A stretch of 41,267 bases of DNA, from contig NC_057760.1 in NCBI RefSeq assembly GCF_004010195.1, positions 1,568,963 through 1,610,229 on the forward strand, written 5' to 3'. Shown here piece by piece: positions 5,677 to 38,058 of the stretch. The stretch comes from Chiloscyllium plagiosum (lineage: Eukaryota). The notes under the pieces were generated by a model that made no database searches, had not been told where the DNA came from, and saw nothing but the letters and a program-made list of their open reading frames with translations. The translations under genes were made by a program, and so were the position numbers. Positions within the stretch are counted from its first letter, which is position 1, and each line of letters opens with the position of its first letter.

Positions 5677-6999
5677 CTAGTAATCCCAGAGTCCCAGGTT
5701 AGTATTCCAGGGACATGGGTTCAAATGCACATTAGCACATGGACTCAGCGGATCAAGAGGGTAGCTCCCCCTCTCAAGGGCAACTCGGGGCGTGCTGGCC
5801 AAGCCAATGATGCCCACGAGTGAATTTTAAAAATTCCACTCGAGCAGATGGCAAACTTTGCATCCCATAAAATCCAGAATAAAATGGTTCCTAATGCAAC
5901 CTTGTTAAAGTTGATCAGTTCACCAACAGTGAAGAAAATCTGCCCTCCTTACCCGGGTCTGGACCTACACCTCACTGCAGGGCTGGGGCTCTGCTCTTCA
6001 CTCACCTTCGAAATGGCCCCTAGTGAGGCGTTCAGTTGCGGGGGGGGGCATTCAAGAATGGACAACAAACAACAGCCTGGCCAACTTGGTCCGTATCCCA
6101 TGGAAGAATTTTAAAAAGTGAAGCAAATCACAGACACAAACACCTATTTATAAAAACAATGAGGAAAACTGAAAGGAGCTGGAAGATTCAGTTGCTGATT
6201 TAAAACTCTGACAGAAATTGTAAACTTTGAAATAAGTAGTGAGACTTTGCTTTGCCTTGTGGCTTTCTTAATTACTTTTCTTCTTTTTTATTTGTCAGTC
6301 TCGATACCTTTTCTCTCTTTGTAAGTATCACTTTCTCTTTGTTCTGCTCTCTCAATGTCACTGCGCTGTTGTTTGATCTTGGGGGAGCCACAGTTGCGGG
6401 TTGTTTGAAGGGGGCAATAGATGTTCTGTAACCAATCTGTCCAGGGTTATCATCACATACCTCTTGAGCAAATAGCAGTTGAACCTGGGCCTCCTGGCTC
6501 CCAGGTAGGGACACTACCACTGCACCACGAGAAGGGCTATATGCTGCTTGCTAGCTGAGGGATTATCCAAGGTTTTGAGCCAGGGTCAGCACTGGTTCTA
6601 ATAACAATGAGGCCTGACTGAACTGACGTTTGAAGGACAGCAAAATTAGTGTCATAGTTAACCTCAGGGTCACTCTGCTTTCTCTGCACGGATGCTGCCA
6701 GACCTGATAAGTTTCACCAGCAATTTCAGTTTTTGTTCGAGGTTTCAGGCATCTGCAGTTCTTTATTTTTGTGAAATTAGGGTGTTTGGCAAAGACCTTG
6801 AGCAGTGCAATTGGGCAGTTTAATCAGGTCATGTGTTCCAATGCTACAGCAGCTGACTGCAGTAGCCACGTCCACCTGGTCACATAGTCTTAGTCTCTTT
6901 ATTGGACTTCAGCCGAGGTCTGTTTTGTCCCAGTGTTCCCCTTCCTCCCCTTCCCCCCCCCTCCACCGCCATCACTACTCCCAACCAAGACTGGGAGGA

Positions 7000-7430
7000 A
7001 CAGTGCCGAGGGAGCACGGCAATATGGGAGGGTCAGTACTGAAGGAGCACCGCACTCTGGGAGCATCAGTGCTGAGGGTGCCCTGCACTGTTGGATGTTC
7101 AGTGTTAGGGGACTGCCACACTCTCCAAAGGTCAGTACTGAACAAGTGTTGTACTATCAGAGTATCAGTGCTAAGGGAGCACCGCCGTGTCAAAGGGTCA
7201 GTATTGAGGGAGCATGCATGTCAGGGTCAGTGCTAAAGGAGCACCATCCTGTTGGCAGGTCGATGTTGAGGGAGCATCTTAGTGTCTGGCTGTCAGTGTT
7301 GAATGAGCATCGCAGTGTCCGAGCGTCACACTGTTCGAGGGTCACTATTGAGACAGTGTTGCATTGTCCCAGGGCCAGTGCTCAGGGGCACCTCACTCTG
7401 GGAAGGTCAGCAATGAGGCACAACCGCTCA
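7000..7430 (+). repeat. Degenerate 33-bp satellite (cagtgctgagggagcaccgcactgtcagagggt), about 13 copies
   Basis: cagt-c/a-ctga motif recurs at 7001, 7034, 7067, 7100, 7133, 7166, 7199; reverse-complement remnant at 11330-11412. Confidence 0.85.
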
Positions 7431-7504
7431 ATCAGAGTAAAACTTAATCATGTGTGGCCTTGGAAGTGGATTCATCAGGAACTTCCAAAAGAGAACTGGA
7501 GAAG

Positions 7505-7830
7505 TACAGACGTTTATAAAATCATGAGGGGCATGGATAGGGTGAATAGCCAAGGTCTTTTCCCCAGGTTAAGGGAGTCCAAAACTAGAGGGCATAGGTT
7601 TAAGGGGAGAGGGGAAAGATTTAAAAGGAAGCTGAGGGGCAACTTTTTCACGCAGAGGGTGGTGCGTGTATGGAACAAGCTGTCAGAGGAACTGGTGGAG
7701 GCTGGTACAATTGCAACACTTAAAAGGCATTTGGACTGAAATGTGGATGGGAAAGGTTTCGAGGGATATGGGCAAATGGGACTAGTTCAGTTTAGGAAAC
7801 ATGGACAAGTTGGGCCGAAGGATCTCATTC
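7505..7830 (+). mobile_element. CR1/HER1-type LINE 3' fragment
   Basis: Encodes VYKIMRGMDRVNSQGLFP...TRGHRFK...LRGNFFTQRVVRVWNKL, the CR1 ORF2 C-terminus. Confidence 0.9.
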
Positions 7831-15153: not shown

Positions 15154-15293
15154 NNNNNNNNNNNNNNNNNNNNNNNNNNNNNNNNNNNNNNNNNNNNNNN
15201 NNNNNNNNNNNNNNNNNNNNNNNNNNNNNNNNNNNNNNNNNNNNNNNNNNNNNNNNNNNNNNNNNNNNNNNNNNNNNNNNNNNNNNNNNNNNN
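15154..15293. other. Assembly gap (140 N) inside a G-rich degenerate tandem repeat
   Basis: N run flanked by repeated ggggagaatggggactcgctccca-like units (about 14990-15335). Confidence 0.95.
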
Positions 15294-18473: not shown

Positions 18474-19534
18474 ATGGGAGCAGCCGAGGACGAGCTGATT
18501 GGGATCCCTTTCCCGGAGCACAGCAACGAGCTGCTGCATAGCCTCAATGAGCAGAGGCGCAAGGGGCTGCTCTGCGACCTGACCATCGTGGCTCAGGGGC
18601 TGGAGTACCAGACTCACCGGGCAGTGCTGGCCGCCTGCAGCCAGTACTTCAGGAAGCTGTTCACCGCCAGGCCCTTCCGAGGCCAGCGGGACGTCTGCGA
18701 GCTGGACTTTGTGCGTCCCCGGGTGCTGGGTGCCCTCCTGGAGTTTGCCTACACGGCCACTCTGACGGTCAGCAGCTCGGACATGAGGGAGGTGCTGCAG
18801 GCGGCCCGCCTGCTGGAGATCCAGTGCGTGACCGATGCCTGCGCTGACATCCTGCAGAGCAGTGGCGCCTCTGAGCCACCGCAGCCCACCCCTGACCCAC
18901 CAGCCATCTACGCCGGAGCCAGCCTGTACCCGGAAGGTCCTGCCCAGGAGGAGGCAGCAGCAGTGGCTGCCGCGGCCGATCTACAGACGCTGGAGGTGCC
19001 CAAGGTCCGGCGCCGCAAGAGGCCCAAGAAGCCGCCCCGTCTCTCGCTGAACCACCGCGGCAGGAGCCTGTACCGGATTGTCCAGCCGCTGCAGACCTCC
19101 ATGGATACAGACGCCGAGCTGGACCGGAGGCACCCAGAGGCTTGCCTGGGAGAGCAGGAGTGCAGCCCCGGGGCTGGCGGCCAGCAGGAGGGCGAGGGGG
19201 ATGGGGGTTTCCTCGCCGAGGAGGGAGGGGGACTGTCTTGTCACCAGCTGGCCCCCTCCTCCTCCCCTCTCCTCCCTCTCGCCGGCGACGAAGAGAGCGC
19301 CGAGCTACCCGCCTCCACTTACCTGAGCCTGGTCAGCAACGGTCTCCTCAGCGACGGGCCACTTTCCGCGCTCGACAGGGCCCCAGGGACCCGCCGCAGG
19401 AAGTCGCAGATGCCCCAGGAGTGCCCCATCTGCCACAAGGTCATCCACGGAGCGGGCAAGCTCCCGCGGCACATCCGCACCCATACCGGTGAGAAGCCGT
19501 TCGCTTGCCAGGTCTGTGGCGTCCGCTTCACCAG
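18474..19534 (+). CDS. ZBTB7B: ZBTB7B (ThPOK/cKrox) first coding exon: BTB/POZ domain, linker, zinc finger 1 and first half of finger 2
   Basis: Acceptor tctctgcAG ends at 18464, followed by gggtccaacATG (ATG at 18474). Translation MGAAEDELIGIPFPEHSNELLHSLNEQRRKGLLCDLTIVAQGLEYQTHRAVLAACSQYF (ZBTB7-type BTB) and KSQMPQECPICHKVIHGAGKLPRHIRTHTGEKPFACQVCGVRFTR, the ZBTB7B-type rather than ZBTB7A/C-type sequence. Donor AG|gtatgt after 19534, phase 2. Confidence 0.96.
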
Positions 19535-19639
19535 GTATGTCGTTCTCTGCACTGCAGGCAACGTGACGTGGGTCAAGATAGGGAGAGCTGGTTACACTCA
19601 CCCTTTTACTAGCCAGACTACCCTCTTGTGCTCCCCCCG

Positions 19640-20205
19640 GTCGCACTTTCTCTGGCTCTCTCTCTCGCACTCTCTCCCTCTCTCTCTCACTCGCACTTTT
19701 CTTCACTCTCTCTTACTCATATGTTCGTCTCTCTTTCTCTCTTTCCCTCTCACTCGCACTTTTCATCTCTCTCTTAAATGTTCGTCTCTCTTTTTCTTTC
19801 TCTCTCTCTCTCGCTTCTCGCTCTCTGTCACACTATATCTCCCTCACACACTTTCTCTTTTTCTGTCGCCCTCTCTGTTCCCACCACCACCCTCTCCATC
19901 TTATCCACTTTGTCCTTGTCTTCTTTCCAACAGCTTTGTTCCCTCACTATCACCCTGTCTCCTTATGTCTCCCCATCCCCTCCATCCCAATATCTCTCTC
20001 TGTCTTTCCCTCTTCCCTGTCTCATTCTTCTCAACTCTCTCACTTCCCACGTTTGAATGTATTGTGTCCCTCTCTCTCCCAGCTGTCTCCCTCTCCCTTC
20101 TTTACTGATTCTTGCCCACCCACCACTCTCTCTCAATCTCTCTCTATCTATCTCTCTCTCCCTTTTCCCTTCCTCATCTGCTTGCCTTCTTTCCTATCCC
20201 TCCCA
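19640..20205 (+). repeat. CT-rich low-complexity tract in the ZBTB7B intron
   Basis: Long (CT)n-like polypyrimidine sequence; it accounts for the spurious Leu/Ser extension of the 585-aa ORF. Confidence 0.9.
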
Positions 20206-20276
20206 CTGTCTGTCCGGATGCTCTGAAGCCCCTATACTAACGGGTGTTGAGAAAGTTTGTAACTCAGGTTGAAGTT

Positions 20277-20412
20277 CTGGATGTAGGTTTGCTCGCTGAG
20301 CTGGAAGGTTCATTTTCAGACGTTTCGTCACCATACTAGGTGACGTCATCAGTGATGTGATGGTGACAAAACATCTGAAAATACACCTTTCAGCAAGCAA
20401 ACTTACATCCAG
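20277..20412. mobile_element. Fold-back Penelope-derived element with an intact hammerhead core on the minus strand (20316-20355)
   Basis: Terminal arms ctggatgtaggtttgctcgctga / tcagcaagcaaacttacatccag; the minus strand reads tca-CTGATGA-c-GTCACC-tagtat-GGTGAC-GAAA-CGTC-tga. Confidence 0.8.
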
Positions 20413-20724
20413 CCTCCATATTCTCTCCCACCTACCCTTCTTGTGATCCGTCACCTCACAGCCAGCCCATCTCCCCATGCCTCAGCTCCCTCCAACCCCA
20501 TTTCTTTCCTTTCCTTCCTTCCGCCTCATCTCATTCCCCTTCTTTGCTTTCTGTCCTCTTCCCTCTGCCATTTTGTTGCCTGCCCCCAGAGCCTCCACCA
20601 CTCAATATGATAATGGCCGATCATCTAACTCAGTACCACGAACCCACAATCTCCCCTGTATCTTTTTCAACTAAAACCAGGACTGAGTTATTTTCCCATT
20701 TATTTTTTGTAATGTGATGCTTGG

Positions 20725-20931
20725 CATGGGTTTCCTCTGGGTGCTCCGGTTTCCTCCCACAGTCCCAAGATGTGCAGGTCAGGTGAATTGGTCATGCTAA
20801 ATTGCCCGTAGTGTTAGGTAAGGGGTAAACGTAAGGGTATGGGTGGGTTGCGCTTCGGCGGGGCGGTGTGGACTTGTTGGGCCGAAGGGCCTGTTTCCAC
20901 ACTGTAAGTAATCTAATCTAATCTAATCTAA
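20725..20931 (+). mobile_element. 5'-truncated HE1-type SINE with (AATCT)n tail
   Basis: gggtttcctctgggtgctccggtttcctcccacagtccc ... gggccgaagggcctgtttccacactgtaagtaatctaatctaatct. Confidence 0.9.
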
Positions 20932-21071
20932 TTTATTGCCCATCCCTATTTGCCTCCTTGGGGGGGGTGCGGAGCTGCCTCCTTGAATCCCTGAGGTGCA
21001 GATGACCCCTCCACCCAGTATTAGCATTGCCTTGTTTCACATCATGGCTTCAGTGGGCCAGAGCAATGAAT

Positions 21072-21570
21072 TATAGAATCCCTACAGTGCATAAAGAGGC
21101 CATTTCCCCCTTCGACCCTTCAAAGAGCTTTCTGCTCGACCCCCTCCAATCCCACATCCTATCCCCGTAACACCACATTTCCTTGGCTAACCCACCTTAG
21201 CCTGCAATCCTTGGGCACTATGGGACAATGTAACGTGGCCAATCCACCCGAACTTGCACATCCCTGGGCACTATGGGACAATTTAGCATGACCAATCCAC
21301 CCTAACCTGCACATACCTGGACACTACGGGACAATTTAGCACCTAACCTGCACATCCCTGGGCACTACGGGACAATTTAGCATGGCCAATCCACCCTAAC
21401 CTACTCACCTTTTGGACTGTGGGAGGAAACCGGAGCACCCGGAGGAAATCCATGTAGATACGGGGGGGGGGGGGACAATGTCTGTGTGGAGTTTGCACAG
21501 TTGCCCTGAGGCTGAATTGAACCCGGGTCCCCGGCTCTGTGCGGCAGCGGTGCTAACCACTGTGCCGCCC
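21072..21570 (-). mobile_element. HE1-type SINE with internal tandem expansion
   Basis: tRNA-like head at 21500-21570(-); about four 53-bp units at 21212-21402; tagaatccctacagtg tail. Confidence 0.85.
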
Positions 21571-21809
21571 AGTGGTGGTTGGATATTTGGCCATGAGAGG
21601 CATCGCATTGCCCCCTCGTGTTCCAGGAGTAGCACAGGGTTGGGGGATGAGGTGGGAGGAGGGGTGTTGGGGGAAGCACAGGGTTCCATTTGGGGACAGG
21701 TGTAGGGGGGGATTAGACTGCGGCGACCCGTGGGAAACTGTGCTTGTTCTGAACCCTGTCTTCCTCTTGTTTTCCCCTCGCGGTCTCGTGCCCATCTCGG
21801 AATCCGCAG

Positions 21810-22860
21810 GAATGACAAGCTGAAGATTCACATGAGGAAACACACGGGCGAGAGGCCGTACTCATGCACCTGCTGTGATGCTCGCTTCCTCCACAGCTAT
21901 GACCTGAAGAACCACGCCCGGCTCCACACTGGGGACAGGCCCTTTGAGTGCAGCCAGTGCCGGAAGGCCTTTGTACGTATTGACCATCTCCAGCGACACC
22001 TGAAGGGCCAGAACTGTCTGGAGATCCGCACCAGGAAGCGCCGGGGTGACAGCCAGGGACCACAGGAGCACCTGGTCAACTGGGAGCACTCAGGAATGGA
22101 TGGCACCTTCCCAGAGGAGTACAGGATCGAGAGAGAGACCCTAGGAATGGACTGTGTCTTCCCAGAGGGATACAGGATCAAGAGGGAGACCCATGGAATA
22201 GACGGTGCATTCCCAGAGGAATATGGAATTGAGAAGGAAACCCCGGGAATCGACAGTGCATTCCCAGAGGACTATGGGATCAAGAGGGAGCCCTCGGGGA
22301 CAGACAGGAAATTCCCGGAGGGATATGGGATCAAGAGGGAATCCCCAGGAATCGACGGTGCATTCCCAGAGGACTATGGGATCAAAAGGGAGCCCTCGGG
22401 GACAGACAGGAAATTCCCGGAGGGATATGGAATCAGGAGCGAGTCCCCAGGGATTGATGGTGCGATCCCAGAGGGATATGGGATCAAGAAGGAGCCCTCG
22501 GGGGCAGATAGGAATTTCCCAGAGGGATATGGGATCAGGAGCGAGTCCCCAGGGATTGATGGTGCGATCCCAGAGGGATATGGGATCAAGAAGGAGCCCT
22601 TGGGGATCAGCAGGAAATTTCCAGAGGGATACAGGATCAAGAAGGAGCCTCTGGCAATAGATTGTACCTTTCCCGAGGGATACAGGATCAGGGGGGCACC
22701 TCTGGGACTAGACGGCACATTCCCAGAGCGATACAGGATGACAGTGGAGCCCCCACAAACAGAAGGAGACAGTGACCAGGATGACTTGCGAGTTTGGGGC
22801 CACAGCACTGTCAAGTGGAATAGTCAGCCAGGGGAAGACATCCTGGTGGATCCCTCATAA
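21810..22860 (+). CDS. ZBTB7B: ZBTB7B last coding exon: rest of finger 2, fingers 3-4, tandem 17-aa repeat tail, stop
   Basis: Acceptor ccgcAG at 21808-21809; phase matches the previous exon (AG+G=Arg). [78 protein letters not shown] is diagnostic of ThPOK. TAA ends at 22860. Spliced CDS 2112 nt = 703 aa. Confidence 0.95.
22108..22755 (+). repeat. Coding minisatellite, 51-bp / 17-aa unit (consensus [17 protein letters not shown]), 12 full copies plus a partial 13th
   Basis: Units start at 22108 and every 51 nt up to 22720, with no frameshift or stop. Middle units alternate PSGTDRK-type and SPGIDGA-type ends. Confidence 0.95.
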
Positions 22861-23074
22861 TCTGACCAAGCACAGTTATATTTTTTTATAGATTGCTGCA
22901 AAACTCCCCTGCTCAAACCTTTGCATATTATCTGCTTCAGTGGGACTGTGAAGCAGGCTGTGGGAGGCAGGGTTTTTTTAAAATATGCTTTAAGCCGTTC
23001 AGGACAAGTGTCTGCCTCTATGCACCTTTTTAATGTTTCTGGGATAAGTGGCAACTTTTGCAATGAAACACTGT

Positions 23075-24720: not shown

Positions 24721-24980
24721 TGGTGGGGGGGACTGTTGGTCAGGGCCACACACCCCTCAGCCTGACAAAGAAATGTCAAAAAGCACTTTTTGTTTTCTTA
24801 TGGAGCTCGGGGGAGTTTGGTAATGTTCCCAGTATCTAATCCCATGTTCTTGGTGGGGGGGACTGTTGGTCAGGGCCACACACCCCTCAGCCTGACAAAG
24901 AAATGTCAAAAAGCACTTTTTGTTTTCTTATGGAGCTCGGGGAGGTTTGGTAATGTTCCCAGTATCTAATCCCATGTTCT
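24721..24980 (+). repeat. 130-bp direct tandem duplication
   Basis: 24721-24850 and 24851-24980 are identical except gggagtttgg versus ggaggtttgg. Confidence 0.95.
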
Positions 24981-24989
24981 CCCTGGGAT

Positions 24990-25165
24990 AGGGGGGACAG
25001 TGTAGAGGGAGCTTTACTCTGTATCTAACCCGGTGCTGTCCCTGTCCCTGGGATGGAGGCACAGTGTAGAGGGAGCTTTACTCTGTACCTAACCCAGTGT
25101 TGTCCCTGTCCTGAGAGTGTTTGATGAGGGGGACAGTGTAGAGGGAGCTTTCCCCTGTCCCTGAC
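24990..25165 (+). repeat. About three copies of a 65-70 bp satellite (gggacagtgtagagggagctttactctgtatctaacc...)
   Basis: acagtgtagagggagcttt recurs at ~24997, 25061 and 25133. Confidence 0.85.
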
Positions 25166-26602: not shown

Positions 26603-26945
26603 TCTGCTGTGTATAACTTAGGTAACCGTGACTCCCTCCCTTCCCCCACATCCCCCACTGATATCTGCTGTGTATAACTTAGGTAAACGTGACTCCCTCC
26701 CTTCCCCACCCCGACAATATCTGCTGTGTATAACTTAGGTAAACGTGACTCCCTCCCTTCCCCACCCCGACAATATCTGCTGTGTATAACTTAGGTAAAC
26801 GTGACTCCCTCCCTTCCCCACCCCGACAACATCTGCTGTGTATAACTTAGGTAAACGTGACTCCCTCCCTCCCTTCCCCACCCCGACAATATCTGCTGTG
26901 TATAACTTAGGTAAACGTGACTCCCTCCCTTCCCCCCTCCCCCCG
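26603..26945. repeat. 56-60 bp minisatellite, 6 copies, in the DCST2 3' UTR
   Basis: tctgctgtgtataacttaggtaaacgtgactccctcccttcccc starts at ~26603, 26664, 26720, 26777, 26833 and 26893. Confidence 0.95.
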
Positions 26946-26951
26946 TCAGCC

Positions 26952-27288
26952 CTATTTGAGTTTGGGCAGGACCAGTTTCCAGTCCTCGTCCATGTGGGTG
27001 TAGGTCAGGGGCGTTTGCGCCTGAGCAGTGACAGCGGTGCCACTGCTGCTGGGCGTGTCCACGCGCACGTCCCTCAGGGAGCCAGCCTCACTGCCGCTGT
27101 CACTGCCACTGAGGGAGGGCGTATCCTGCCGCTGGCCCCCCCGCCGCTCTGCCCGCTCCAGGTCGGCCACCGTGACCAGGTCCCGGCTGCTCCTCTTGGT
27201 GATGAACTCGCTGGGGTCGTACGGCTCCTCCGGGCTCGTCTCCTCCTCCGGCGATTTCTCCTGGTACCCGAAATCCGGCTCGCTCTCG
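26952..27288 (-). CDS. DCST2: DCST2 last coding exon (acidic/Ser-rich tail)
   Basis: Pyrimidine-rich acceptor ...ccccggcccggcAG|C GAG AGC GAG CCG; AG+C=Ser joins in frame; ESEPDFGYQEKSPEEE...DEDWKLVLPKLK* (TAG at 26952-26954); GC/CpG-rich coding-like composition. Confidence 0.8.
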
Positions 27289-27434
27289 CTGCCGGGCCGG
27301 GGTGGGAGTGGGTGCAAGGGGAGGTGGGAGCAGGGAAAGTAGGGGCGGGCGGAAAAGAAATGTTGAGAGATGAACCGTTTCCATAAGTGAAGTTCACAAG
27401 GGTTTCTGAGCCATGTTCAGCGACCACTCGCGCA

Positions 27435-28415
27435 TGTTACACAGGAACTGGAGGCCATTCAGCCCCCCCTACCTGAGCCTGTTACACAGGAACTGGAGGC
27501 CATTCAGCCCCCCCTACCTGAGCCTGTTACACAGGAACAGGAGGCCATTTAGCACACCCTCCTCCAACCTGTTACACACAGGAACAGGAGGCCATTCAGC
27601 CCCCTCCTCCAGCCTGTTACACAGGAACAGGAGGCCATTTAGCACACCCTCCTCCAACCTGTTGCACAGGAACAGGAGGCCATTCAGCCCCCTTCTCCAA
27701 CCTGTTAGACAGGAATGGGAGGCCATTCAGCCCCCTCCTCCAACCTGTTAGACAGGAATGGGAGGCCATTCAGCCCCCTCCTCCAGCCTGTTACACAGGA
27801 ATGGGAGGCCATTCAGCCCCCCCTCCTCCAGCCTGTTACACAGGAATGGGAGGCCATTCAGCCCCCTTCTCCAACCTGTTAGACAGGAATGGGAGGCCAT
27901 TCAGCCCCCTTCTCCAGCCTTTTACACAGGAATGGGAGGCCATTCAGCCCCCTTCTCCAACCTGTTAGACAGGAATGGGAGGCCATTCAGCCCCCTTCTC
28001 CAACCTGTTAGACAGGAATGGGAGGCCATTCAGCCCCCTTCTCCAGCCTGTTACACAGGAATGGGAGGCCATTCAGCCCCTTCTCCAACCTGTTAGACAG
28101 GAATGGGAGGCCATTCAGCCCCCTTCTCCAACCTGTTAGACAGGAATGGGAGGCCATTCAGCCCCTTCTCCAACCTGTTAGACAGGAATGGGAGGCCATT
28201 CAGCCCCCTTCTCCAGCCTGTTATACAGGAATGGGAGGCCATTCAGCCCCTTCTCCAACCTGTTAGACAGGAATGGGAGGCCATTCAGCCCCCTTCTCCA
28301 GCCTGTTAGACAGGAATGGGAGGCCATTCAGCCCCCTTCTCCAGCCTGTTACACAGGAATGGGAGGCCATTCAGCCCCTTCTCCAGCCTGTTACACAGAA
28401 GGAGGCCCATTTAGC
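27435..28415. repeat. About 43-bp minisatellite, 22-23 copies, in the last DCST2 intron
   Basis: Unit cctgttacacaggaatgggaggccattcagcccccttctcca(a/g); gaggccatt counted 22 times plus one degenerate copy. Confidence 0.95.
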
Positions 28416-30176: not shown

Positions 30177-31160
30177 TAGAGTCATAGAGATGTACAGAAA
30201 CAGACCCTTCGGTCCAACTTGTCCACGCTGACCAGATATCCCAACACAATCTAGTGTCACCTGCCAGCACCCGGCCCATATCCCTCTAAACCCTTCCTAT
30301 TCATATACCCATCCAGATGCCTTTTAAATGTTGCAATTGTACCAGCCTCCACCACATCCTCTGGCAGCTCATTCCATACATGCACCACCCTCTGTGTGAA
30401 AAAGTTGCCTCTTAGGTCTCCCTGTCACCCTAAACCTATGTCCTCTAGTTCTGGACTCCCCCACCCCAGGGAAAAGACCTTGTCTATTCACCCTATCCAT
30501 GCTCCTTATAGGTTTTATAAACCTCTATAAGGTCACCCACTCAGCTTCCGACGCTCCAGAGAAAACAGGCCCAGCCTGTTCAGCCTCTCCCTATAGCTCA
30601 AATCCTCCAACCCTTGTAAATCTTTTCTGAACCCTTACAAGTTTCACAACTTCCTTCCTATAGCAGGGAGACCAGAATTGCACATAATATTCCAACAGTG
30701 GTCTAACCAATGTCCTGTACAGCTGCAACATGACCTCCCAACACCTGTACTCAACGCTCTGACCAATAAAGGAAAGCATACCAAACACCGCCTTCATTAT
30801 CCTATCTACCTGCGACTCCACTTTCAAGGAGCTATGAATCAGCACTCCAAGGTCTCTTTGTTCAGCAACACTCTCTAGGACCTTACCATTAAGTGTATAA
30901 GTCCTGCTAAGATTTGCTTTCCCAAAATGCAGCACCTCGCATTTATCTGAATTAAACTCCATCTGCCACTTCTCAGCCCATTGGCCCATCTGGTCCAGAT
31001 CCTGTTGTAATCTGAGGTAATCTTTGCTGTCCACCACACCTCCGATTTTGATGTCATCTGCAAATGTACCAACTGTACCTCTTATGCTCACATCCGAATG
31101 GACTTGCACTAGAAGGTCTCTTTGTTCAGCAACACTCCCTAGGACCTTGCCATTAAGTAT
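30177..31160 (-). mobile_element. CR1/HER1-type LINE, ~1 kb 3' fragment with RT C-terminus
   Basis: FADDIKIGGVVDS...LQQDLDQMGQWAEKWQMEFNSDKCEVLHFG...LYRTLVRPLLEY. Confidence 0.95.
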
Positions 31161-31383
31161 ATACGTCTTCAGTGCAAAAACCTCAAAAATTGCAATATCC
31201 TTCCTGTAACAAGGAAGCCAGAACTAGACACAGTTCTCTAGAGGATGCCTTCTGTTTGACCTGAACATGCCGTACCAGCTCCTAGGTGTGAGCAATGAAA
31301 GCAAGCCATCTTAACCACCCTGGCCGCACATAATGGGCTCCTCGTGCGAAAGGTTCCTCCTGACATTTCCTTGGTGCTGTTAC

Positions 31384-31644
31384 CTTTTGTCACTGCGTCG
31401 CCCGGGGACTGTGGACTCCAGGCCATCGCTGGAAGGGCCTGTGGACTCCCGTCCGAAGAGGGCAGCCTTGAGAGCGGCCTGCTTCTCCCCGGTGATGGCC
31501 AGGTCCTCGTAGAGTGCGGCCCTGATCCTCCGCTTCAGGAGGGCGCGCAGCTCCCTCCGTTCCTGCTTGGCCTTGTCCTGCCGGCTCTTCATTTTTTCCA
31601 GGGCGCTGAGCCACAGTTGCACTTTGCCAGAGTCGCTGGAGTCC
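31384..31644 (-). CDS. DCST2: DCST2 penultimate exon
   Basis: ccccatccccAG|G GAC TCC AGC GAC ... GAC AAA AG|gtaaca; phases match both neighbouring exons. DSSDSGKVQLWLSALEKMK resembles DCST2 DSSDEEGPQLWLAAA. Confidence 0.87.
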
Positions 31645-31880
31645 CTGGGGATGGGGGAGACGGGGTGGGGAGAAGAGGGTGGGGATTTAAGGTTTCGCAA
31701 GGCCACTCACTCTGAGAGGGGGAACACGTATGGCCTCTCTGCCAATAAACTTCACATCCCTCCCGCTCAACATCCCTGCGATAGTGTGACATCAGTGCAC
31801 AGCAAGATCCCTCTTCTTCCCCCCGCACCCGCCCCCTTCAAACGGGCACCAAAAGGCGAGCAGTGTCAGGCGGAGGAGGT

Positions 31881-32307
31881 GGGTGGCATGCTGGTTCAGC
31901 GGTTAGCATCGCTGCCAGGCACTTGATTCAATTCCAGCCTTGGTGATTGAGTGCAGCTTGCGCGTTCTCCCCGTGACTGCATGGGTTTCATCTGGGATCG
32001 CTGGTTTCCTCTCGCTGTCCAAAGATGTGCAGGTTAGTATGGATTGGCCATAAGAAATTATCCGTAGTGTCCTCGTATGTGCAGGTTAGGGTGGATTGGC
32101 CATGCTAAATTGTCACGTAGTGCCCAGGGATGTGCAGGTTAGGGTGGATTGGCCATGCTAAATTGTCTCATAGTGCCCCAGGGATGTGAAGGTTAGGGTG
32201 GATTGGCCGTGCTATATTGTCCCATAGTGCCCAGGGATGTGCAGATTAGACGGATTGGCCGTGGCAAATTGTCCCATAGTGTCCAGGGATGTGCAGGTTA
32301 GGGTGGG
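31881..32307 (+). mobile_element. HE1-type SINE with internal tandem expansion
   Basis: Head gggtggcatgctggttcagcggttagc, V-domain, then five full plus one partial ~53-bp units from ~32024. Confidence 0.85.
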
Positions 32308-32641
32308 TTCGCCCTGAGGTCTGTGATCCCGGACTCTTTCCAAGGCTGAGTTCTTACCGCAGCGCAAATATTGAATGTTGCTAACAAACCTGACATCGGA
32401 CTCCAAAAGAACCCAATCTTCGCAGTAAACCACAGACAGGGTCCAAAGCCTTGAGCTCCCTCCCTGACAATACAAGGGAGCCCCTGCACCACACGGGGGA
32501 CTGCTCTGTTTCTCCAAGACGGTACACAGCCATCTTCAAAAGGAGTGTTTAGGGGCCAATCACACATGCTGCCTCAGTGATAGCCGCAAGTCTAAAGGAA
32601 AACACGTCGGTGATTCGAAAAGCGACATTCATGGTACTTAC

Positions 32642-32735: not shown

Positions 32736-33289
32736 CTAGAGAGGGAGCAAGCATTGGTTCAAACGAGGGTCAAAGGAACTTGAACAAGAAGGGGGCGTGT
32801 TGTGTGTGTGAATGTGTGTGTTAGTGTTCTGGATTCTCTCTTACAATGGACCACACAGGAATTGGCTGTTGTGCTCAACTGCTCTCTCTCCCACTTCAGG
32901 TTTCATCTTACCGACAGAGACTTCTCTCCCTCAGGTCTGCGGTGGCACACGGAGTCACGACCCTGAGGCTCCCAATCCAGGGACTTGACGTCCACAGAAA
33001 AGGCACGCTCACAAAGCCACCCAACAAGTCAAGTTGCACACCTATCCTTCCGACACACGCCCAACGGCAGGAGAGAGACCCCGGTATGGTTGGGTCATAC
33101 CATGCCAGGGCATCATAGTGGCTCAGTGGTTAGCGCTGCTGCCTCACGGCGCCAAGGACCTGGGTTCGATTCTACCCTCGGGCAACTGCCACCTCCAAAG
33201 TTGGAGATGTAGTGGACAGCGAAGAAGCACATTAGAGAGAGCGTGGAATGCGGGGTTACAACTCAGAGAGGGTGCAGAGTAAGAAAGAG

Positions 33290-34255
33290 AGATCAGAGAC
33301 AGAGGTGGAGGGTTGCTTTTCAGACTGGAGGCCTGTGACCAGTGGAGCGCCACAAGGATCAGTGCTGGGTCCACTGCTTTTCATCATTTATATAAATTAT
33401 TTGGATGTGAGCATAAGAGGTATAGTTAGTAAGTTTGCAGATAACACCAAAATGGGAGGTGTAGCGGACAGCAAAGAAGGTTACCTCAGATTACAACAGG
33501 ATCTTTCCAGATGGGCCAATGGGCTGAGGAGTGGCAGATGGAGTTTAACTTAGATAAATGTGAGGTGCTGCATTTTGGGAAAGCAAATCAGGGCAGGACT
33601 TAATGGTAAGGTGCTGGGGAGTGTTGCTGAGCAAAGAGACTTTGAAGTGCAGGTTCATAGCTCCTTGAAAGTGGAGTCGCAGGTAATAGAATAGTGAAGA
33701 AGGCGTTTGGTATGCTTTCCTTTATTGGTCAGAGCATTGAGTCCAGGAGTTGGGAGGTCATGTTGCGGCTGTACAGGACGTTGGTTGGGCCACTGTTGGA
33801 ATATTGTGTGCAATTCAGTTCTCCTTCCAGTCGGAAAGGTGTTGTGGAATTGGAAAAGGTTCAGAAACGATTTACAAGGATGTTGCCAGATTCAGAGGAT
33901 TTGAGCTATAGGGAGAGGCTGCATAGGCTGGGGCTATTTTCCCTGGAGTGTCAGAGGCTGAGGAGTGATCTTATAGAGGTTTGTAAAATCAAGAGGGGCA
34001 TGGATAGGATAAATAGGCAAGGTCTTTTCCCTGGGGTGGGGGAGTCCAGAGCTAGAGGGGCATAGGTTTAGGGTGAGAGGGGAAAGATATAAAAGAGACC
34101 TAAGGGGTAACTTTTTCACACAGAGGGTGGTACGTGTATGGAATGAGCTGCCAGAGGAAGTGGTGGAGGCCGGTACAATGACAGCATTTAAAAGGCATCT
34201 GGATGGGGACATGAATAGGAAGGGTTTGGAGGGATATGAGCCAAGTGCTGGCAAT
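33290..34255 (+). mobile_element. CR1/HER1-type LINE, ~1 kb 3' fragment (frameshifted)
   Basis: VTSGAPQGSVLGPLLFIIYIN...SKFADNTK RT motifs through RGNFFTQRVVRVWNELP; preceded by a SINE head at 33108-33185. Confidence 0.95.
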
Positions 34256-34281: not shown

Positions 34282-34781
34282 NNNNNNNNNNNNNNNNNNN
34301 NNNNNNNNNNNNNNNNNNNNNNNNNNNNNNNNNNNNNNNNNNNNNNNNNNNNNNNNNNNNNNNNNNNNNNNNNNNNNNNNNNNNNNNNNNNNNNNNNNNN
34401 NNNNNNNNNNNNNNNNNNNNNNNNNNNNNNNNNNNNNNNNNNNNNNNNNNNNNNNNNNNNNNNNNNNNNNNNNNNNNNNNNNNNNNNNNNNNNNNNNNNN
34501 NNNNNNNNNNNNNNNNNNNNNNNNNNNNNNNNNNNNNNNNNNNNNNNNNNNNNNNNNNNNNNNNNNNNNNNNNNNNNNNNNNNNNNNNNNNNNNNNNNNN
34601 NNNNNNNNNNNNNNNNNNNNNNNNNNNNNNNNNNNNNNNNNNNNNNNNNNNNNNNNNNNNNNNNNNNNNNNNNNNNNNNNNNNNNNNNNNNNNNNNNNNN
34701 NNNNNNNNNNNNNNNNNNNNNNNNNNNNNNNNNNNNNNNNNNNNNNNNNNNNNNNNNNNNNNNNNNNNNNNNNNNNNNNNN
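34282..34781. other. Assembly gap, exactly 500 N
   Basis: Round-number N run typical of an unsized scaffold join. Confidence 0.95.
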
Positions 34782-36535: not shown

Positions 36536-37517
36536 AAAAGCACCACAAGCTGAATGCTGATTTGCTTTGCTTTTTCCTTTTAAACATAAGGGTTGTAGAA
36601 CTTTGTCAAAGGACTTCACCTCTAAAACAGTACTCAAACATAATTCTTTCATGTTGTGACCTCGTTGATTCTTTAACCAGGTATTTATTTCAAGCAGGGC
36701 CTGTCATTCTTCCATATCTCTGGTGCTAATTCCAAATCTTGGAACAACTCTGGCTTACTAGCTCTTTCTCTTAACAAATTCCATTTTTCATAAAAAAAAA
36801 TTCTCTTTCAAAATTCACTTTGTCAGTCAAGTCCAAAAATTGCCACCTCCTAAGCCTTTTTCCCATGGCTTGGGTGTTATGTTCCCTTTTAAATTGTTTT
36901 ATGTTATAAACAGTCGCCTGTCATCCCTACAGGGCTCCCACCGGCTGCCCAGACCTGCGCATCAATTTGCAGTCCGGTGAGTGAACAGACATTTGGGGAA
37001 CTGGGGAGTGCTTTATCCCAGATGGTGCTGAGCTTCTCAAGTGTTGTTGGAGCCAGGCAAGTGGGGATTATTCCATCGCACTCCTGACTTGTGGCTTGTC
37101 GATGGTGAACAGGCTTTAGGGGAGTCAGGTGGTGAGATACTCACTGCAGGATTCCCAGCCTCTGCCTGTTCTTGCTGCCGTAGTATTTATATGGCTGTGT
37201 CCAGTTCAGCTTCTGGTCAATGGTAACTTCCTGGGATTATGGATCTGGCTGTCGTTGTATTTATCTCTCGTGAATGCACGTATTGAGACTGGCAAACCGT
37301 TCTCCTTATCGGTGTCTGTCTGTCGATTTTATACGCGTCAAAGTCTGTGCAGGGCTGTACCATTTCAAAGTGTGGCCATATCTTTTGTGCAAAGGAACTC
37401 AAAACTTTGCAGCAGATTTATCAGAATAAAACTGTGCTTGCGATCGTGAACTCCCAAGACCACTTTAGCTTCACCTGTCTCTAGCACTGAGTTCTGTAAA
37501 TTGAGACGGCAAGACAT

Positions 37518-38058
37518 GTGTTGCGTGCAGTTCTGGCCTCCTTCCTATCGGAAAGATGTTGTGAAACTTGAAAGGGTTCAGAAAAGATTTACAAGGATGT
37601 TGCCAGAGTTGGAGGGTTTGAGCTATAGGGAGAGGCTGGAAGGCTGGGGGCTGTTTTCCCTGGAGCGTCGGAGGCTGAGGGGTGACCTTATAGAGGTTTA
37701 TAAAATCATGATAGGCATGGATAGGATAAATAGACAAAATCTTTTCCCTGGGATCGGGGAGTCCAGAGCTGGAGGGCATAGGTTTAGGGTGAGAGGGGAA
37801 AGATATAAAAGGGACCTACGGGGCAACATTTTCACACAGCGAGGGTGGTACGTGTATGAGCTGCCAGAGGAAGTGGTGGAGGCTGGTATAATGTCAACAT
37901 TTAAAAGGCATTTGCATGGGTACATGTGTAGGAAGGATTTGGAGGGATATGGTCCAGGTGCTGGCAAGTGGTACGAGATTGGATTGGAATATCTGGTCGG
38001 CATGGACAGGTTGGACTGAAGGGTCTGTTCCCGTGCTGTACATCTCTATGACTCTATG
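37518..38058 (+). mobile_element. CR1/HER1-type LINE 3' fragment
   Basis: CVQFW...LERVQKRFTRMLP...RRRLRGDLIEVYKIM and tail ctctatgactctatg. Confidence 0.95.

Follow-up and report, generated by a model that had tools for sequence, protein, structure and literature searches.

A tandemly amplified KEPE/SUMO-type motif array in the C-terminal tail of shark ZBTB7B (ThPOK)

Described SUMO motif systems and the shark ZBTB7B gene

SUMO motifs of transcription factors are usually scattered single sites, and synergy-control motifs usually number one or two per protein. The latter have a functional definition, drawn from activators: they restrain transcription only where a promoter offers several sites. 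In nuclear receptors such as Nurr1 they consist of a SUMO consensus with proline or glycine on its flanks (PMC3554661, available part). The KEPE motif, known from the C/EBP regulatory domain, lies in predicted disordered parts of nuclear transcription factors and is gained or lost between paralogues; there the motifs are scattered, arise by point mutation and number 0-3 per NFATC paralogue (PMC2638927, available part). According to the same part of that paper, almost every second protein contains a psi-K-x-E match, and false matches predominate. HIC1, a BTB-zinc-finger repressor, has a psi-K-x-E-P motif, and SUMO on its K314 favours MTA1/NuRD binding (PMC5356852, available part). SUMOylation of BTB domains in other ZBTB proteins is described in the accessible portion of a preprint (bioRxiv 10.64898/2026.09.10.750468). 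Bony-vertebrate ZBTB7B/ThPOK, mainly known as a repressor and the helper T-cell switch in mammals, has a BTB domain, four C2H2 fingers, a basic stretch past finger 4 and a non-repetitive tail of at most 140 aa.

We found that ZBTB7B of the shark Chiloscyllium plagiosum has the same BTB, finger and basic-stretch layout, whereas its tail is 280 aa long and contains 13 tandem repeat units. Its motifs agree with the patterns published for SUMO, KEPE and synergy-control sites, as the initial annotation had proposed for SUMO and synergy control: the KEPE pattern [MILVFT]K.EP.{1,4}[DE] was found in four units, and the proline-flanked consensus in 6 of the 12 full units when called with a flank spacing taken from general knowledge. 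Unlike the scattered KEPE motifs, those of the shark arose as a 17-aa unit, which includes a conserved upstream F-P-E-x-Y, was duplicated in tandem. In contrast to the one central-region site of HIC1, up to eight sites lie C-terminal to the fingers, in sharks only, and a regular array of this size is unusual for a transcription factor. Coding minisatellites in disordered regions share the in-frame unit, the A/B higher-order structure, the copy-number change between species and the homogenisation within orders, but in the shark the protein concerned is a conserved regulator of immune lineages, and a modification site is predicted within the unit. The array is thus a tandemly amplified KEPE/SUMO-type motif on a BTB-zinc-finger repressor. 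It is undescribed as far as the literature could be searched, although the kinds of component are all known: no published description of a ThPOK repeat tail was found in searches conducted mostly without subscription journals, and the available part of PMC10768021 does not mention ThPOK.

The window, meaning the whole stretch of DNA analysed (41,267 nucleotides), contains the gene on its plus strand as two coding exons, running from an ATG at 18474 to a stop codon at 22858-22860 and giving a product of 703 aa. Both exons matched the annotated protein P0121 (RefSeq ZBTB7B-like, Chiloscyllium plagiosum, 703 aa) with no mismatch, and Pfam, translation and alignment agreed on a BTB domain at the N terminus plus four C2H2 fingers. 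The first coding exon (18474-19534) encodes the BTB/POZ domain (PF00651, E=4.9e-29), a linker, finger 1 and the first half of finger 2, with a GT donor just past 19534. The GT-AG intron (19535-21809) is absent from transcript-derived contigs of runs X1, X15 and X2. The last coding exon starts with the second half of finger 2 and fingers 3 and 4 (21810-22017; Pfam C2H2 matches and ZBTB7A finger structures). Past finger 4, a basic RTRKRR stretch (22027-22044) is a likely nuclear localisation signal; 7B retains part of the R/K-rich signal known from ZBTB7A (PMC9932118, available part).

Other features of the window were also recorded. Assembly gaps of N (15154-15293 and 34282-34781) lie outside the coding exons. 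GC-rich, exon-like open frames on the minus strand (26952-27436 and 31380-31706), with no Pfam family over the cut-off, may belong to a neighbouring minus-strand gene. The frames 6894-7739, 30591-31223, 33236-34065 and 37450-38019 are presumably the ends of LINE reverse-transcriptase fragments; one of them was scanned against Pfam (6894-7736), without a match. Minisatellites occur at 27435-28398, 26603-26935, 24721-25111, 32024-32313 and 21201-21402, with periods of 43, 56, 130/64, 53 and 53, respectively, none a multiple of three, and with 0-15% indels.

The gene had been named as ThPOK beforehand, and this was borne out. A genome search found three ZBTB7 loci, and for each of the nine bony-vertebrate ZBTB7B proteins compared this gene was the nearest of the three, whether the BTB region, that of fingers 1-2 or that of fingers 3-4 was used. 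In a BTB tree, unrooted and mostly poorly resolved, the other two shark genes shared one well-supported branch. Among the best 120 matches, all the named BTB-bearing ones were ZBTB7B or hypothetical according to NCBI; the automatic UniRef label of P0001 reads ZBTB7A. The ZBTB7B gene neighbourhood includes DCST genes. None of the 10 matches to the DC_STAMP family (PF07782) fell on this contig, in a search that intron-split genes can escape, and the neighbouring ORFs had no Pfam match over the cut-off. Based on the protein comparisons, we accepted the gene as ZBTB7B/ThPOK. The other ZBTB7 paralogues (L010, L011, L013 and L014, on G000 contigs C1 and C31) are 7C-like and 7A-like and have no tail array; the first coding exons of shark ZBTB7A and 7C contain three and two psi-K-x-E motifs, respectively. 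Among ZBTB7B linkers, psi-K-x-E was found in 2 of 117 proteins. Directly past the BTB domain, the linker of Narcine ZBTB7B (P0011 / P0128) has a separate expansion of a short G-N-P-E-V-like repeat, so repeat expansion has taken place in ZBTB7B on more than one occasion.

Repeat units, transcripts and selection

The array comprises twelve full units of 51 bp (17 aa) at 22108-22719 (P0121 residues 454-657), in register and with no indel or stop, followed by a partial thirteenth unit at 22720-22755, which has no lysine and is equivalent to the last unit of other sharks. The frame then stays open to the stop codon through a C-terminal cap (22756-22860) made of W-G-H-x-x-x-x-W and a terminal D-P-S, which in alignments is common to sharks and looser in most rays. 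The unit consensus is F-P-E-x-Y-x-I-K-x-E-(P/S/T)-x-G-x-D. F/I-P-E-x-Y-x-I was found in all 12 full units, psi-K-x-E in seven (units 2, 4, 5, 6, 8, 10 and 11, as IKRE or IKKE) and IKxEP in five of these (4, 6, 8, 10 and 11). The unbroken frame, the unit number and each motif count were exactly those of the initial annotation. The lysine codons of the seven units lie at 22180, 22282, 22333, 22384, 22486, 22588 and 22639, and the predicted acceptors in P0121 are K478, 512, 529, 546, 580, 614 and 631. TRF gave a period of 51 with 12.4 copies, and periods of 102 and 204 scored higher, which reflects an alternating A/B higher-order repeat seen in units 4-10: units 4 and 6 are one base apart and units 7 and 9 two, while neighbours differ by 9-19. 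When unit columns were shuffled, at least seven psi-K-x-E arose in 327 of 20000 trials and at least four KEPE motifs in 45 of 20000, counts tested only once the motif had been noticed. Because the units are related copies, the seven psi-K-x-E are not seven independent events.

Four of the 24 listed sequencing runs were examined for transcripts, no run being recorded as RNA. Contigs from three runs belonging to three studies (X1, X15 and X2) join the end of the upstream exon to the acceptor, with the contiguous match stopping at 21807; since they cross the exon junction, they derive from spliced transcripts. One 932-base contig spans from the upstream exon to 22461, and further pieces reach 22600 (unit 10) with no indel. 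After a filter that drops some records, no contig of the four runs covered the stretch between 22601 and the stop, but the contig-bearing runs contain 0.91-0.95 of the sampled words of 21811-23050, so the last part of the exon is probably present too. The single raw single-cell run gave one read within the approximately 2% of the run sampled. Thus, the array is coding and is spliced into mRNA at least to unit 10. Read-through to the stop codon had been named as a check; spliced transcripts were found to reach unit 10 of the array, and the stop itself was not directly observed. Contigs from other samples showed single-base differences at 22142, 22314 and 22555, none shifting the frame and each altering an array residue (L to P, F to L and I to V). 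A species-specific oddity or an assembly artefact was ruled out, the array being annotated in eight shark species and present in contigs from the three studies.

Neutral divergence of the array in orthologues would have spoken against the initial proposal; among the units of this array, the differences lie mostly at silent sites. Comparing units inside the Chiloscyllium plagiosum array, and not between species, we obtained a pairwise pN/pS of 0.44. Of 36 possible silent changes 23 were seen, and of 117 possible replacement or stop changes 26 (p=8e-6); the bias persisted in each class when transitions (p=0.002) were separated from transversions (p=0.005). These p-values are approximate because the units are related. 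We conclude that the array is under purifying selection.

The same data bear on an alternative, namely that a minisatellite expanded in a dispensable, disordered tail and was tolerated there, the SUMO motifs being copied passengers and selection merely keeping the frame open to the cap and the region soluble. Copy number does drift among carpet sharks (10, 12, 12, 13 and 13), the unit is altered to 16 aa in the sawshark, and rays manage without an array; many other minisatellites occur in the window, and an unrelated 51-bp open-frame repeat (L003) exists elsewhere in the genome, all of which would suit such an expansion. However, the silent-site bias is specific to the coding frame, where synonymous changes were enriched with an odds ratio of 6.2, against 3.5 in the antisense shadow frame and no enrichment in the other four; the coding frame is also the only one of the six without stops across the array. 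Four amino-acid columns are invariant among units, three of them with silent variants. Moreover, the array is better conserved between orders than the linker (56-68% against 44-47% identity over aligned residues with horn, basking and saw sharks), and the two Chiloscyllium species have equal unit numbers and 237 of 244 residues identical. Tolerated expansion, with both of these parts, is therefore an improbable account.

Distribution of the array and of its lysine

Units were counted by pattern, with the partial last unit counted in. Among carpet sharks, both Chiloscyllium species had 13 units, Hemiscyllium and Stegostoma 12 each, and Rhincodon 10. The sawshark Pristiophorus had nine units, mostly of 16 aa, and the horn shark Heterodontus and the basking shark Cetorhinus had five each. 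The sevengill shark Heptranchias had two units, and the sawfish Pristis and a ray-like protein one by pattern and two by eye, all lysine-free. No unit matched the pattern in Hemitrygon, Mobula, Hypanus, Narcine and Rhinoraja. Searches for homologues found no ZBTB7B from chimaeras, ground sharks, dogfishes or a second mackerel shark. The array, which had been presented as confined to this lineage, was absent from 98 bony-vertebrate ZBTB7B proteins (several partial), whose tails past the last finger reach at most 140 aa; four of them had psi-K-x-E there, one site each. In full-length mammal sequences the tail is 85 aa, shorter and non-repetitive as anticipated.

In basking, horn and saw sharks, units were more alike within species (0.64-0.75) than between species (0.47-0.60), which points to homogenisation or to separate expansions per order, whereas units of two carpet sharks compared were as alike between as within species (0.56-0.61). 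The array thus appears to derive from a roughly two-unit element of elasmobranchs, multiplied to 5-13 copies in four shark orders. The proposed lineage-specific and copy-number-variable character was therefore upheld in part: copy number varies and bony vertebrates have no array, but it is shared by several shark orders, and a lysine-free element of about two units is already present in the sevengill shark and sawfish.

No copy of the repeat was found elsewhere in the genome, including ZBTB7A and ZBTB7C, the other 23 of the 24 matches being 24-34% identical. Three loci inspected as possible copies (L002-L004) were unrelated repeats without psi-K-x-E; L003 (G000:C99735) is a near-perfect 51-bp tandem repeat with open frames of more than 600 aa on both strands. 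A search among 1.84 billion representative sequences gave 16 matches, one of which was shark ZBTB7B; eight of the other 15 were inspected and rejected as unrelated repeats. In searches with the array, every Atlas match scored below 0.9, the PDB gave no match and no Pfam family exceeded the cut-off.

We found that conservation was uneven along the unit. Over 82 units, the columns held F in 69, P in 76, E in 74, Y in 74, I/M/V in 81 and the final E in 78, while the lysine column held K in 49, R in 12 and E in 11. The acceptor lysine, present in 49 of the 79 units of the eight expanded arrays, is the least conserved core residue. This counts against SUMO attachment, since a SUMO site would be expected to retain its lysine best. 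All eight sharks with expanded arrays had at least one psi-K-x-E site in the tail: 6-8 per array in each of the five carpet-shark species, 5 of 5 units in the horn shark (lysine likewise in 5 of 5) and 7 of 9 in the sawshark (lysine in 8). The basking shark had lysine in one of its five units and arginine in four, and no psi-K-x-E was found in the unexpanded tails of the sevengill shark and rays. Thus, three of the four order-level expansions are lysine-rich and the basking shark is a counter-example. The KEPE pattern occurred 3-5 times per array in six of the eight expanded arrays, in five of five units in the horn shark, in none in the basking shark and sawshark, and in 1 of 98 bony ZBTB7B proteins. 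In the carpet-shark arrays, lysine tends to be missing at either end, in the first and last units, and is mostly present in the inner, recently expanded ones; the lysine of unit 9 is present in one Chiloscyllium species and absent in the other. The inverted SUMO pattern, in its usual form, is also matched twice in carpet sharks, as D-R-K-F/I. A VKPE found in several sharks and rays was excluded as a second SUMO site, as it sits within the folded BTB domain.

Considering the poor conservation of the lysine, an older aromatic-acidic docking motif, F-P-E-E-Y-x-I-x-x-E, may have been the object of selection, with the lysine incidental or an overlaid switch. The motif would bind a partner directly or act as an acidic activation or condensate 'sticker', and repetition would raise its valency. 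It is, unlike the lysine, near-invariant across the 82 units, exists lysine-free in the sevengill shark, the sawfish and a ray-like protein, and was multiplied with arginine in the basking shark; the 204 residues of the array also have a net charge of -10 and 22 regularly spaced F/Y. On the other hand, no partner or known motif matched it in Pfam, Atlas, PDB and representative-sequence searches, only an eroded form is left in stingrays, devil ray, electric ray and skate (no unit by pattern in five species), a comparison with the conserved tail of tetrapods gave no significant resemblance, and the expanded units of three orders are lysine-rich. We regard such a docking role, in either form, as the chief alternative to the multi-SUMO reading, possible but somewhat doubtful. 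It is compatible with that reading, and both can hold.

The multi-SUMO reading and the ThPOK context

With about an even chance of being right, we propose that the tail is a disordered multi-SUMO platform whose redundant sites give a dimeric repressor an added capacity for co-repressor binding or synergy control. SUMO attachment to the tail is predicted from the motif. An ancestral shark-ray element of about two units would have been multiplied and homogenised by unequal crossing-over, either per order separately or with turnover. Being unfolded, the tail would let UBC9 reach each I-K-x-E, and up to 14 acceptors would be available on a dimer joined through the BTB domains, only a few of them predicted to be modified at once. 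By analogy with HIC1, the tags would serve as binding sites for co-repressors that contain a SIM, NuRD/MTA1 for instance, or alternatively damp activation at multi-site promoters, by analogy with synergy-control motifs; the tail would thus add a dose-tunable repression module to ThPOK. The proposed redundancy would allow single units to lose their lysine. Disorder of the array is weakly supported by composition, by the absence of domain matches and by AlphaFold: with 20 sequences, helices appeared in the BTB domain and fingers and the array had no secondary structure (pLDDT 35-42), but the whole model is of low confidence (mean pLDDT 41.7). The single-sequence model was uninformative, the fingers themselves being unfolded.

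A broader version of the multi-SUMO reading is that sharks repeatedly made a two-unit ThPOK tail into a SUMO-valency dial: separate orders would have multiplied lysine units to 5-13, bony ThPOK would have no such module, and the basking shark would carry a SUMO-dead arginine version. This version is speculative, and we hold it to be rather unlikely. A further explanation keeps SUMO on the lysine-rich tail and assigns it mainly to the turnover of ThPOK and not to co-repressor binding, through SUMO-targeted ubiquitin ligases or through direct switching with ubiquitin or acetyl groups. Proteins bearing several SUMO tags are recognised as substrates by ubiquitin ligases of the SUMO-targeted kind. 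Moreover, acetylation and ubiquitination of KEPE lysines are raised in the available part of PMC2638927, and K314 of HIC1 is both acetylated and SUMOylated (PMC5356852, available part). Nevertheless, a turnover role carries every weakness of the SUMO reading, and by either route we consider it very improbable.

If the multi-SUMO reading holds, the sharks provide a series for relating SUMO-site number to repressor strength (two units without lysine, five with, five mostly without, nine, and 10-13). The natural lysine-rich, arginine-rich and two-unit tails make the effect of SUMO valency directly testable, and a shark-only module on a conserved factor is a concrete, testable difference. It would also raise the question of whether sharks differ in how they wire the fate of helper T cells. 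The initial annotation stressed ThPOK as the CD4 T-lineage regulator; this role is unsupported in sharks by the one expression study found, a bamboo-shark atlas in which, according to its available part, ZBTB7B is not T-cell specific and the organs named are spleen, liver and kidney, with no thymus (PMC11372145). The CD4 angle for shark ThPOK is thereby weakened.

The tails of other proteins yielded further observations. Most tetrapod ZBTB7B tails (e.g., P0015-P0067) share G/A-L-D-L-S/T-N-G, which is absent in shark and ray tails and which we take to resemble the CtBP-binding motif of HIC1. Tetrapods and sharks may have gained different co-repressor handles on the same ThPOK tail. The idea, formed by eye, that the array is an amplified tetrapod tail motif was not supported: an hhalign comparison of the shark unit/cap profile with the tetrapod tail gave a probability of 0.56%, and 5 of 100 column shuffles scored equally. 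Finally, the ENA protein P0143, which is unrelated, has tandem 18-aa units each with G-I-K-K-E-P, a case of convergence on an array of this type of motif.
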